A stretch of 64,000 nucleotides of DNA from positions 288,001 to 352,000 of the forward strand of contig CAWIIV010000015.1 in NCBI GenBank assembly GCA_963836205.1. The letters are read 5' to 3'. Under the pieces are notes generated by a model. The model worked only from the letters and a program-made list of their open reading frames with translations. It had not been told where the DNA came from and made no database searches. A program made the translations under genes and the position numbers. The stretch is from an uncultured Acidimicrobiia bacterium (lineage in GTDB: Bacteria > Actinomycetota > Acidimicrobiia > Acidimicrobiales > AC-14). This document shows, one piece after another, positions 48,751 to 52,203 of this stretch (position 1 is the first letter of the stretch; every line of letters starts with the position of its first letter).

Positions 48751-49617
48751 CTAGCGCCGGGCGGGCTCCCGCAATCCGGCGAACAGGTCGTCTTCGGGGA
48801 CGGGTGCGTCGACCACCGACCGGGCCAGGATGTAATCGTCGTACGGGTAGGCGTTGCCGGCCTCGGACGGGAGCCCGAACCAGAACGGCGACGCCGGGTC
48901 GACCTGGGTGGCGTGGGCGAGGAGGGCGGCGTCGCGGATGTCGTCCTCGGGGAGGACGTCGATCCGGGTCGTGATCCGGTCGTCGAGGCCGGGGCGCGCC
49001 AGCCACTCGTCGGTGAACGGCGACTCCAGCCCCAGCTCGAGGAACTTCTCGTGCAGTGCCACCAGCCGGGCCTTGGCCCACGCCGAGTAGTACATCTTCG
49101 ACGGCTGCCAGGGCGGGCCGGCGTCGGGGTAGCGGTCGGGGTCGCCGGCGGCGTCGAAGGCCACCACGCTGATGTCGTGGACCCGCAGGTGGTCGGGGTG
49201 GGGGTAGCCGTCCTGGTCGTCGGCGTAGGTGACGATCACCTGCGGCCGTTCCCGCCGGATCACCTCCACCAGCCGGCCGACGGCCTCGCCCAGATCGGCG
49301 ACGGCGAAGCACCCGGGACGGCGATTGGCCTCGGTGCCCGCCATCCCCGAGTCGCGGTAGCCGAGCATGACCACCTCGTGGTAGCCGATGATGCCCGCGG
49401 CCCGCTCGAGCTCCTCCAGTCGCACCTCGTGCAGGCGGTCCCGAACCTCGGGAAGGTCCATGGCCGGGTTGAGGATGTCGCCCTCCTCGCCGCCGGTGGC
49501 ACAGACGAGCACGCAGCGCACACCCTCCCGGGCGTAGCGGTGGACGGTGGCCGCCCCCTTGGACGATTCGTCGTCGGGGTGGGCGTGGACGGTGAGCAGG
49601 CGGAGGTCGGCGTCCAT
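48751..49617 (-). CDS. mca: Mycothiol conjugate amidase
   Basis: VHAHPDDESSKG, GYRDSGM, GYPHPDH, AHATQVDP, EDDLFAG. Confidence 0.93.
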   Translation of the reverse strand: MDADLRLLTVHAHPDDESSKGAATVHRYAREGVRCVLVCATGGEEGDILNPAMDLPEVRDRLHEVRLEELERAAGIIGYHEVVMLGYRDSGMAGTEANRRPGCFAVADLGEAVGRLVEVIRRERPQVIVTYADDQDGYPHPDHLRVHDISVVAFDAAGDPDRYPDAGPPWQPSKMYYSAWAKARLVALHEKFLELGLESPFTDEWLARPGLDDRITTRIDVLPEDDIRDAALLAHATQVDPASPFWFGLPSEAGNAYPYDDYILARSVVDAPVPEDDLFAGLREPARR

Positions 49618-51572
49618 TGGTAGTCAGGGGCGCGTTGCCGGCAAGGCCAGCACGTTTCCCCATCCCCCTTTCAATCCGTACGTGCGGTTTTCCCGCATAC
49701 GGCTTTCCGACGATCTTCTGGACATGGTTACGACGCCTTCGGGTAGCGAATGGTGCCCATGAGCTGATGCAGGCCCTGGCCGTGGAACCAGGTGCGGGTC
49801 CAGCAGTCTGCCTGGCCTGCCCGTAGGTTGCGGCCCCGCTTCTTGATGAGCAAGCGCTTGAGCCGCCACACGACGTGTCGGTCGAGGGAGACGAACTTAT
49901 TCGCCGCGTTGCCGGTGCGGAAGTAGTTGCCCCACCCCCGCAGGAACAGGTTGAGGTCGTAGATCACGTCCTCCAACTCCATGCCGACCCGGTTCCGGCC
50001 GGTGAGGGCCTTGACCCGCTGTCGTGCCCGCTTCATCGACCGCTGCGACGGCCAGCGGTGGAGGTAGTAGCGGATGACCCGCTGCTGTTCCCACAACCGG
50101 CCCGACATGCGGGCGTGAAGATGACAACCCAGGAAGTCGAAGCCCTCCTTGCCCTCCCGGAGGTCGACCACACGGGTCTTGTCCGGGTGCAGGCTCAGGC
50201 CGAGATCACCCAGCAGGGCCGCCGCCCTGGCCTGGGCCGTCTCGGCCTGGCTGCGGGTCGTGCACAGCACCACGAAGTCGTCCGCGTAACGGACGAGCTC
50301 GCCGGTGCCGGACTCGGCCCAGGACCGGTCGAAGGCGTGCAGGTAGATGTTGGCCAGCAGCGGGGAGATGACCCCGCCCTGGGGCGTGCCCGTGACCGTC
50401 TCGGAGCGCACCCCCTCGACCAGCACCCCGGCACGCAGCCACTGGCGGATGAGCTTGAGCACCCGCCGGTCCGACACGCGCTCGCCGACCAGTGACAGCA
50501 GCCTGTCGTGGTCGATCTGGCCGAAGAAGTCGCGGATGTCGGCCTCGAAGACGAACTGCCGTCCTCGGGGGAAGGACACCCGGATGGCTTCCAGGGCGTC
50601 GGTGGCCGACCGCTTCGGGCGGAACCCGAAGTCTGGTCGGCAGGAAGTCGGCCTCGAAGATGGGTTCGAGGACGATCTTGGCTGCCGCCTGGCACACCCG
50701 GTCGCGCACGGTGGGGATGCCCAGGGGCCGCATCCGGCCGTCGGGCTTGGGGATCTCCACCCGCCGAACAGGCGACGGGCGGTAGGTGCCTGCACGGAGG
50801 TCACGGGAAAGCTCGTCGAGCACGCGCCCGACCCCGTAGTCCTCCACCGCCTCCAGGGTCAGTCGATCGACCCCGGCGGCGCCACGATTGGCTCGCACCC
50901 GCTCCCACGCCGTCCACAGCACGTCACTGCGGTGGATTCGGTCGAACAGGGCGTGGAAGCGGCGACCCGGAGACTGCTTGGCCGCAGCCCATAGCCGGTT
51001 CTGGAGTTTTCGCACGTTGTCGGTGGGCGGCTGCCCGCCGGGGGAGTTGGGCCGGGCGTTCCCGGCCATGCCCTGGCGCTTACTTCCGTCTCCGGCGTGA
51101 CCGAAGTCGGGGCCCTTCCCTCCCGCCGGGTTCATCCCGGCGATCAGCGGTACTACGACCCCGTCGGACTCCCGCTGCGCTCCGCTCGATTTCACCACTG
51201 GCTTATACGAGCGGTCTTTGCTGACGAGGCTGCGCAGACGGGTCTCTCCTGTTCCGAACCTGACCGTGCGTACGTGCCGCTCCCCGTACCCCGAGGGGAC
51301 CCGACCAGGGGCGTGTCCGGAACGCCAGTCGGTCGGACGTGGCCTTCGCCGTGACATGAGCGGCTCGGCTCCCCCGTTGTGCGTTTGACGAGGCTGCAGG
51401 ACTCGCGCCTGGTGGCACTACGGCCCGCACGCTTGCTCCCTCCAAAGAGGCTCTTGACGCCCCGCTCAGCCCGCCGCCTCTCGGCGACGAACCGGGGCCT
51501 GCTACCGGGCTCTCCGGCGATTACCCGGGCGGGACTCGCACCCGCTGGTCTGGTCCAGTTCTCAGGACGCAA
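49615..51572 (-). mobile_element. Group II intron inserted at the mca start codon (exact register ambiguous because ATG flanks both ends)
   Basis: 5' TTGCGTCCTGAG; domain V AAAGCCGTATGCGGGAAAACCGCACGTACGGATT; domain VI ending CCCTGACTACCAATG; internal RT ORF. Confidence 0.92.
49728..51069 (-). pseudogene. ltrA: Group II intron reverse transcriptase/maturase without endonuclease domain; +1 frameshift near 50632
   Basis: RPLGIPTVRDR, GFRP, GTPQGGVISPLLANIYL, YADD, GWGNYF; ACC AGAC TTC where ACC AGC TTC is expected. Confidence 0.9.
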
Positions 51573-51666
51573 CATGGCCCAACGCTACCGGGGGTCGGCC
51601 TGGTATCTGTGAGTTGTGGCCGGTGGGGAATTGTGGCCGGTGGGCGCCGACGGCCACACTCCGACT

Positions 51667-52203
51667 GTGAAAATCGCGTTCGTCGGGTCGTTCTCGACCG
51701 GCAAGACCACCCTGGCCAACCTCTTCGCCAAGGAGTGGGACCTGCCCCTGCTGCCCGAGGTCGCCCGTGAGGTGGTCAAGCTCGGGTTCCCCCTCGACAT
51801 GAGCGCCACCGCCGAGACGGAGACGCTCATCTTCCTCAAGCAGTGGCGGGCGGAGGCGGTGCACGACAAGTTCGTCGCCGACCGGTCGATCTACGACGTC
51901 CTCGCCTACGCCGACTGGGTGATGGAGCACAACGACCCGGGCCGCAAAGAGAACCACCTCTGGTACGAGTCGCGGGAGATAGCCCTCCTCGACCTGCGGG
52001 CCCGCTACGACGACGTCTTCTACCTGCCGGTGGAGTTCCCCATCGTCCTCGACGGCCTCCGCCCCGACGACACCACGTTCCAGGCCGACATCGACCGCCG
52101 CATCGTCGCCCTCCTCCACGACGCCGACGTGCAGTTCACCACCCTCACCGGCACCGTCGAGGAGCGCCAGGACCACGTCCGCCGCGTGGTGGGGCCCTCG
52201 TAA
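51667..52203 (+). CDS. AAA_28 (NadR/Ttd14-like) P-loop protein
   Basis: GSFSTGKTT, EVARE, DRSIYD, DGLR. Confidence 0.85.
   Translation: MKIAFVGSFSTGKTTLANLFAKEWDLPLLPEVAREVVKLGFPLDMSATAETETLIFLKQWRAEAVHDKFVADRSIYDVLAYADWVMEHNDPGRKENHLWYESREIALLDLRARYDDVFYLPVEFPIVLDGLRPDDTTFQADIDRRIVALLHDADVQFTTLTGTVEERQDHVRRVVGPS

Follow-up and report, generated by a model that had tools for sequence, protein, structure and literature searches.

How does a bacterial group II intron come to lie exactly between the start codon of a gene and its second codon, and how could it be expressed from there? This question is raised by a stretch of 64,000 nucleotides (nt) from an uncultured Acidimicrobiia bacterium (assembly GCA_963836205.1, contig CAWIIV010000015.1, positions 288,001 to 352,000; the whole stretch is called the window below), in which an intron of 1958 nt separates the ATG of the gene mca from the rest of its coding sequence. 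The answer that we consider probable is that the intron belongs to a large group II lineage lacking an endonuclease domain and specialised for leaderless promoter-start modules, which it would use for both transcription and translation. A preliminary description of this DNA had proposed a lineage that homes to leaderless start sites, and the target TANNNT-NTG, seen across the relatives of the intron, supports that proposal. The features needed for the argument are listed here with the evidence for each in brackets; EBS and IBS stand for the exon-binding sites of the intron and the intron-binding sites of the exons, RT for reverse transcriptase, ORF for open reading frame and MI for mutual information.

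51582..51587, minus strand: −10-like hexamer TAGCGT in the 5′ flank (hexamer statistics; kept 5′ of the intron-less mca of relatives)
51581-51585, minus strand: IBS2, GCGTT, made up of the final bases of the hexamer and the next T (EBS2-IBS2 covariation)
51573..51576, minus strand: IBS1, CATG (positions −3 and −4 covary with the EBS1 loop)
51573-51575, minus strand: start codon ATG of mca, inside IBS1; the entire 5′ exon if mca is leaderless
49615..51572, minus strand: group II intron, 1958 nt, with the ends UUGCG...CCAAUG (copy boundaries, intron-less alleles, EBS3)
51413..51547, minus strand: 5′ part of domain I (Rfam group-II-D1D4-4, RF02003, 91 bits, gathering threshold 49)
51381..51385, minus strand: EBS2, AACGC, single-stranded and just 5′ of the helix enclosing the EBS1 hairpin (Rfam D1D4-6 alignment)
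51348..51364, minus strand: EBS1 hairpin GCCG-CUCAUGUCA-CGGC, with EBS1 = CAUG at 51355-51358 (covariation)
51286, minus strand: EBS3, a C that pairs with the G of mca codon 2 (MI 1.39 bit, 89% Watson-Crick, n = 55)
51192..51575, minus strand: ORF in frame 0, the frame of the host start codon, consisting of the host ATG and 126 intron codons (ORF list and frame analysis)
51192-51194, minus strand: frame-0 stop TGA, overlapping the GTG of the RT frame at 51193-51195
49728..51195, minus strand: RT/maturase frame without an endonuclease domain, broken in this copy (ORFs, domain matches)
49676..49703, minus strand: domain V helix (Rfam match, consensus fold)
49619..49668, minus strand: domain VI, with a bulged branch-point A at 49621, 6 nt before the 3′ splice site (consensus fold)
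49615..49617, minus strand: intron-terminal AUG, in frame with mca (ATG in 60 of 65 members)
48751..49614, minus strand: mca from codon 2 to the stop codon, the 3′ exon (ORF, domain matches)

The element has the main features of a group II intron: domains V and VI with a branch-point A, a domain I with covarying EBS1, EBS2 and EBS3, and a protein with RT and maturase (X) domains. Domains V and VI are matched by the Rfam model Intron_gpII (RF00029) with 42.6 bits at a gathering threshold of 40, and in a consensus fold of 29 family members the domain V pairs are kept with compensatory changes and domain VI shows the bulged A. The intron protein matches RVT_1 and GIIM and scores 415 bits with TIGR04416 (cut-off 300); its RT motif is YADD, and the nearest solved RT is that of GsI-IIC (6ar1, E = 2.8e-64). 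An endonuclease domain was not found in this protein by the domain scan, the ORF ending about 30 residues past GIIM. The downstream ORF is Mca (TIGR03446, 313 bits, cut-off 277), and position 1 of the profile falls on its residue 5.

Read along the minus strand, TAGCGT (51587-51582) is followed by TGGGCC, ATG (51575-51573) and the start of the intron, TTGCGTCC, and the 3′ end of the intron, CTGACTACCAATG (to 49615), is followed by GAC GCC GAC, so that the junctions given in the preliminary description are confirmed. It had further been supposed that removal of the intron would leave a −10 box, 6 nt and ATG GAC, and the same arrangement is indeed present in the intron-less mca of six relatives from the same genus (L010-L015), which reads TAnnnT, 6–7 nt, ATG or GTG, and GAC; two further loci, from unpublished genomes, were set aside. 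These alleles place the intron between the start codon and codon 2 and make one of the two ATGs at the junctions a part of the intron. Another gene that hosts a copy of the intron, encoding a MoaB-like protein, was found intron-less in five relatives, with TACCAT or TACGAT, 6–8 nt and then GTG or ATG.

A DNA search of the assembly from which the window is taken gave eight copies of the intron, each preceded by ATG or GTG. Five of them (L001-L005, family 1) are 99.4–100% alike, and the other three (L006-L008, of which L008 is cut by a contig end) form a second family that is about 90% alike. The near-identity of copies at different sites may be taken as an indirect sign of recent mobility. The hexamer, the spacing in nt and the start codon of each copy are as follows:

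L001: TAGCGT, spacing 6, ATG
L002: TAGCGT, spacing 7, ATG
L003: TACCGT, spacing 7, ATG
L004: TATCGT, spacing 7, GTG
L005: TATCGT, spacing 7, ATG
L006: TAGCGA, spacing 7, ATG
L007: TACCAT, spacing 7, GTG
L008: TAAAAT, spacing 8, ATG

Thus, TANNNT lies 6–8 nt upstream in seven of the eight copies, the remaining one having TAGCGA. Five copies stand at the starts of genes, which encode Mca, an HDAC-family protein, HIT, a CHAT-domain protein and a MoCF-biosynthesis (MoaB-like) protein; the Pfam domains of these hosts begin a few residues past the junction, with the exception of the CHAT domain, which begins at residue 78. L004 is located in sense orientation inside the HATPase_c domain of a histidine kinase, yet the motif is present, and L006 is located in antisense orientation inside a GmrSD_C domain, again with a TA-containing motif. 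At the kinase site (own-genome contig 17), four relatives (L110-L113) carry neither TA nor GTG, and the site appears to imitate a leaderless start by chance within a gene.

The same layout is found far outside this genome. A scan of one genome per species gave about 590 places encoding a related RT, and the best 80 by protein score were used (L021-L100, 48–93% identity); their hosts are Actinomycetota, Chloroflexota, Acidobacteriota, Myxococcota, Pseudomonadota, Planctomycetota, Spirochaetota and other phyla. Intron ends were placed by nhmmer together with short motifs, and 72 of the 88 loci examined had a readable 5′ junction and at least 25 bases of flank. The junction follows NTG (ATG, GTG or TTG) in 68 of these 72 loci, and insertion at a stop codon was found at none of the 72. 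TANNNT occurs at a spacing of 6–7 nt in 62 of the 72 and at 5–8 nt in 66, against a background of 68/17,995 NTG sites (0.38%) with TANNNT at a spacing of 6–7 in the flanks of the same loci. A spacing of 6 is the most frequent (40 sites), ahead of 7 (21) and 8 (4), and the middle positions of the hexamer vary freely. Pfam domains were found in 18 of the 20 downstream ORFs that were scanned; they belong to unrelated families and start about 8–25 residues from the junction ATG. The collected copies and relatives share the flank TANNNT-N6/7(8)-NTG followed by real and unrelated genes, and the random placement without start-codon bias that would have contradicted the earlier proposal was not observed.

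In the RT tree, the four junctions with other targets and five loci whose junctions could not be placed form one separate clade with a support of 100; of the 68 junctions outside this sister clade, 67 come directly after NTG, and the hexamer is present at 66. The sister clade consists of L082, L083, L088, L090, L092, L093, L094, L097 and L098. Its introns have the same EBS1 loop with longer (4–6 base) pairings to other targets, and the upstream start codon and the hexamer are absent.

Genome-wide, TANNNT-N6/7-RTG occurs at 662 sites of the host, and 446 of these 662 are followed by at least 100 open codons, compared with 44% for any RTG, which suggests that a few hundred genes of this genome may be leaderless. 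At 71% GC, frames of this length behind any RTG are common (the 44% just given), so that ORF length is a weak test for a gene in this genome; Pfam domain starts were used for this reason instead.

How such a site would be recognised was approached by a covariation scan over 12 exon and 420 intron bases in 70 loci, in which every intron column was compared with each flank position. Covariation shows that the intron RNA pairs with three segments of the target, all on its sense strand. The third base of the EBS1 loop covaries with position −3 (88% Watson-Crick, 98% with wobble) and the fourth with position −4 (MI 0.88, 95% paired, n = 66), with loop/flank combinations such as CACU/AGUG, CACG/CGUG, CAUA/UAUG and CAUC/GAUG; the CAUG loop between GCCG and CGGC, earlier taken for the likely EBS1, lies where it had been placed and is shown by this covariation to be EBS1. 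EBS3 was identified at intron position 287 (51286 in the window) by its covariation with position +1, the next column reaching an MI of only 0.29. Additionally, EBS2, which was absent from the preliminary description, joins the EBS1 pairing: intron positions 188-191 (51385-51382 in the window) run antiparallel to hexamer positions 4–6 and the following base. EBS2 covaries with hexamer position 5 (MI 0.93, 92% paired, n = 60), the following base is paired in 77–80% and hexamer position 4 in 65–67% of cases, and the invariant final T of the hexamer is always opposite an invariant A of EBS2. The mean number of pairs in this helix is 3.83 of 5, compared with 2.76 ± 0.11 for shuffled partners (maximum of 2000 shuffles, 3.14). 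The unpaired gap between IBS2 and IBS1 is 5–7 nt. With EBS2 on the end of the hexamer, EBS1 on positions −4 to −1 and EBS3 on +1, insertion falls exactly between the start codon and codon 2.

Positions −5 to −8 have no covarying intron column in the 70-locus alignment, and the TA of the hexamer has no pairing partner among the intron columns. At the same time, the pairing pattern of the family-1 introns fits 1613 empty genomic sites, and TA is present in only 17 of these and in 5/5 of the occupied ones; in other words, these introns occupy 5 of 22 perfect target sites. TA is required beyond the pairing, and we infer that it is read by the intron protein, the rival for this particular step being selection for a working promoter.

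Another way in which TA could be read is through the sigma factor, the intron particle using the sense strand opened by the polymerase from −11 to about +3. Several observations would suit such targeting of melted promoters: the conserved positions correspond to the key positions T−12, A−11 and T−7 of a sigma-70 −10 element, the spacings of 6, 7 and 8 nt resemble −10-to-start distances, one intron family tolerates spacings of both 6 and 7, as a flexible single strand would allow, and the paired segments are all on the sense strand within the span of the transcription bubble. However, in an open complex sigma holds T−7 and the discriminator of the same strand, and EBS2 needs precisely hexamer positions 4–6 and the next base, so that both could not bind together. 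Moreover, extended −10 and −35 motifs are not enriched at the occupied sites, and the L006 site does not have the final T. We regard this mode of targeting as unlikely, if still the least unlikely of the alternatives. For the preliminary description, which had combined homing to start sites with the use of promoter-melted DNA, this means that the start-site bias stands across the lineage and the melted-DNA part is weakened, EBS2 pairing with the sense-strand end of the hexamer, that is, with bases that sigma holds.

It could also be argued that no preference for TA or for gene starts exists at the time of integration, which would take place wherever EBS2, EBS1 and EBS3 pair, and that both are seen among present-day copies because the others make no RT and decay. 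The RT seems to depend on the host start codon (see below), which would turn misplaced copies into dead ends; the cross-genome sample is biased to intact RT genes, and no RNA partner for TA is there to impose it. This possibility was weakened by the search of the own genome, which was based on DNA and included three copies with a broken RT frame and one truncated copy: TA was present in 8/8. The 5/5 against 17/1613 for occupied and empty pairing-competent sites of family 1 tell against it as well, and the TA motif is also present at the two intragenic copies, for which a start codon is of no benefit. Finally, young, dead-on-arrival copies at sites without TA would be expected, and none were seen. 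Retention as the only cause is therefore improbable in our view, slightly more so than the use of melted promoters.

The 5′ ends of the introns read GTGCG in 48, TTGCG in 20 and TCGCG in 4 of the 72 loci, the terminal triplet is ATG in 60, GTG in 4 and ACG in 1 of 65, and the median intron length in the lineage is 1973 nt. The consensus ends of group II introns are 5′ GUGYG and 3′ AY, and those of the window intron, UUGCG...UG, depart from them. EBS3 covaries with the base after the terminal ATG, which puts the 3′ splice site after AAUG and the 5′ splice site directly behind the start codon, and the intron ends are fixed by this covariation as (G/U)UGCG...AAUG. Of the two registers offered earlier, UUGCG...AUG and GUUGCG...AU, the former is hereby favoured. 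Other registers (AT/G...AAU/G, A/TG... and one codon upstream) were considered and rejected: they conflict with the covariation of EBS3, the 5′ codon differs among identical intron copies, intron-less relatives carry the GTG of the 5′ junction, and it is the chosen register that puts the branch-point A at the usual distance from the 3′ splice site. A target-site duplication as the source of the terminal ATG was rejected too, the triplet remaining ATG at GTG and TTG sites. Inspection of the window sequence by eye revealed no outward promoter or ribosome-binding site before the terminal AUG. GUG endings occur in 2 of 5 introns with EBS1 = CAC, which may hint at pairing of the terminal triplet with EBS1.

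A further property of the lineage, missed in the preliminary description, concerns translation: the host start codon is in frame with the intron ORF or coupled to it. In 58/63 loci, frame 0 stays free of stops over 100 or more codons of the intron, a length that frames 1 and 2 reach in 0/63, the median open lengths in frames 0, 1 and 2 being 161, 17 and 3 codons. In 25 of the 63 loci, frame 0 runs without a stop into the RT. In 16, the window family included, the TGA that ends frame 0 shares bases with a GTG or ATG start in the RT frame, as GTGA or ATGA; the window copy has this overlap at 51192-51195, after 127 codons. Five loci have TAG-GGC-ATG, a stop followed three bases on by an ATG in the same frame, and the others are variants or decayed copies. 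By comparison, most group I introns are described in passages of PMC3073962 as having an in-frame stop just inside the intron, by which ribosomes are excluded.

The following course of events would account for these observations. The −10 element of the host would start transcription at the A or G of the start codon, and the precursor would thus be a leaderless mRNA with a 5′ exon of 3 nt. Ribosomes would load on the 5′ AUG and read the open frame across domains I–III, which either enters the RT directly or, as in the window copy, stops at a GUGA or AUGA overlap where translation restarts. The RT would aid splicing, by which AUG is rejoined to codon 2 and the leaderless host mRNA restored, and the lariat-protein particle would then home to other sites with this layout. 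With a transcription start at the A of the ATG, the transcript would contain neither IBS2 nor position −4, and splicing would have to proceed on a 3-nt exon and EBS3, for which we know of no precedent. If the scheme is true, splicing with a 5′ exon of 3 nt is predicted, and EBS2 would serve in DNA targeting and not in splicing. In a bolder version, the intron would be an obligate parasite of leaderless modules that brings neither a promoter nor a ribosome-binding site nor a start codon; its RT would be made solely by ribosomes loading on the 5′-terminal AUG of the host, its 5′ exon of 3 nt would carry a triphosphate during splicing, and its particle would pick promoters whose bubble is open. 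Transcription initiation would then guide a bacterial retroelement for the first time, but we give this version little chance.

Several points, in addition to this demand on splicing, weigh against the scheme as a whole. The loci were the best 80 of about 590 by protein score, and the sample leans to intact and possibly well-placed copies. L006 (TAGCGA) and L067 (GACAAT) do not have the perfect hexamer. In 24 of 72 cases the intron starts with U and not with the usual G, and its last base is G and not a pyrimidine; with such ends the catalytic competence of the lineage is an assumption. Frame 0 closes early in 5 of the 63 loci, the RT frame is untraceable in 6, and an excess of differences at the third codon position is absent in the frame-0 region (1461/1565/1496 and 504/651/629 differences). 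Selection on frame 0 at the amino-acid level was rejected for this lack of third-position bias; judged from the sequences, it is the openness of the frame that is conserved and not the peptide. The RT frame of the window copy itself is broken, by a 1-nt insertion amid about 10 clustered substitutions at approximately 50610-50647 on the minus strand. The same lesion is present in L002, and it could be real decay, a gene conversion or an assembly error. The RT frame is intact in L003, L004, L006 and L007, and L005 has a different 1-nt deletion; the window copy would therefore depend on intact copies in the genome (L003, L004).

The RNA data, too, are limited to metatranscriptome contigs, which cannot show transcription starts. 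Twenty sequencing runs matched, including six soil or rhizosphere metatranscriptomes with 10–17% of the sampled words. Metatranscriptome contigs from four runs (likeness at least 88%) were intron-like along 49602-51577, with none on 51578-51700; here, it should be taken into account that a multi-copy intron attracts relatives and that carry-over of DNA is possible. Joints carried by a single contig in this placement were disregarded, their sides being short.

The last and least probable alternative is that the host genes are not leaderless at all, the hexamer being IBS2 plus a protein contact, the transcripts starting further upstream and the likeness to a −10 element being incidental or secondary. 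To our knowledge, splicing with a 5′ exon of 3 nt is without precedent, which speaks for this alternative, as does the role of the EBS2-IBS2 pairing in both splicing and mobility of known group II introns, according to passages of PMC12584367; nevertheless, it is hardly compatible with the intron-less mca and MoaB-like genes, which keep the hexamer at a fixed distance from the start codon while the spacer varies, with the 6–7 nt that leave no space for a ribosome-binding site, with the excess of ORFs of at least 100 codons behind TANNNT-N6/7-RTG (446/662), with unrelated host genes whose Pfam domains start at the junction ATG, or with a divergent neighbour that starts only about 90 bp upstream of mca.

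This neighbour is an ORF at 51667-52203 on the plus strand. By eye, its N-terminus resembles a P-loop NTPase, and it had no NCBIfam match at E 1e-5. Two of the more distant loci have an unusual structure. The element at L026:1341-4128 is 2789 nt long, about 830 nt longer than its relatives, with a second, weaker 5′-end match at 1673-1827, and may hold a nested or partial second copy. In L034:4020-6099 (Saccharopolyspora hattusasensis), the 3′-end match is in two pieces about 2 kb apart, which suggests that this intron could have been interrupted by an insertion.

Should the lineage behave as proposed, the sites that it occupies may point to probable leaderless promoters in bacteria not yet cultured, and its short modular target could serve the design of promoter-proximal targetrons for high-GC bacteria. 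Our searches of open full texts returned no paper that ties group II introns to leaderless genes or −10 elements, or that describes a bacterial RT ORF fused to the start codon of its host gene, and searches within PMC4424553, PMC7306698, PMC8643678 and PMC3073962 gave no passage on start-codon targeting by these introns.

The known introns that come closest in the choice of site are those of the Avi.groEL/EcKTE56.groEL IIB1 clade, which, according to passages of Gomes et al. (2025; PMC12584367), is monophyletic, is found within or next to initiation or termination codons of proteobacterial hosts, has canonical EBS2/IBS2, a subdomain Ia of 300–700 nt close to its 5′ end and an endonuclease domain in its CL1 RT, and finds its sites in a way described there as unknown; its best-studied member lies in a stop codon. 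Insertion within or next to initiation or termination codons is thus shared with the window lineage. However, there is no large subdomain Ia here, the D1D4-4 model starting at nt 26 of the 1958-nt intron and distant members having only small extra hairpins near the 5′ end, and the protein consists of RVT_1 and GIIM in place of a CL1 RT with endonuclease. Moreover, IBS2 lies inside a −10-like hexamer 5–7 nt from IBS1, the hosts come from many phyla, and the position is always behind the start codon. The mode of recognition described above may help explain how codon-associated introns find their sites.

With group IIC introns, the lineage shares a short IBS1, an IBS3 of a single base, an RT without endonuclease and a non-coding landmark instead of a particular gene as the target, and the GsI-IIC enzyme is the nearest solved relative of its RT. 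In contrast to group IIC, where the landmark is a terminator or attC hairpin and EBS2 is missing, a −10-like hexamer with a start codon is used here and EBS2 is present, and the intron is placed where it is expressed and not hidden behind a terminator. Bacterial intron ORFs are normally confined to domain IV. An ORF that runs from the upstream exon through domains I–III into the RT, with translation from the start of the exon, is known from the yeast mitochondrial introns aI1 and aI2, and 25/63 loci, where no stop separates the upstream exon from the RT ORF in the same frame, may resemble this mitochondrial type; unlike the yeast introns, the lineage takes only the start codon from the exon, the frame of many members is interrupted and seems to rely on a stop-start overlap (the window copy stops after 127 codons), and the host is bacterial.

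RmInt1, described in passages of PMC12584367 as a class D intron without endonuclease, is targeted by EBS/IBS pairing together with a few further positions that the protein presumably reads; its home is an insertion sequence, and the sliding clamp directs it to replication forks. It is likewise an example of an endonuclease-less RT combined with pairing and extra positions, but a link to promoters or start codons does not belong to it. Toro and Martinez-Abarca (2013), in the accessible part of their paper, distinguish RT groups g1–g4 without endonuclease, some of them actinobacterial, and leave insertion sites unmentioned there; group g2 has FADD where the window lineage has YADD. The retrotransposon Ty3 integrates at transcription start regions (passages of PMC7306698) and is comparable by analogy only, as a eukaryotic LTR (long terminal repeat) element led by host transcription factors, whereas pairing between RNA and DNA does most of the work here.

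Taken together, the lineage appears to recognise a generic signal of expression, a −10 hexamer with a start codon 6–8 nt further on, in unrelated genes of many phyla, and appears to take both transcription and translation initiation from the host. Group II introns are otherwise known to avoid harm in two ways: some are hidden downstream of terminators or within other mobile elements, and some have a single conserved gene as their target.

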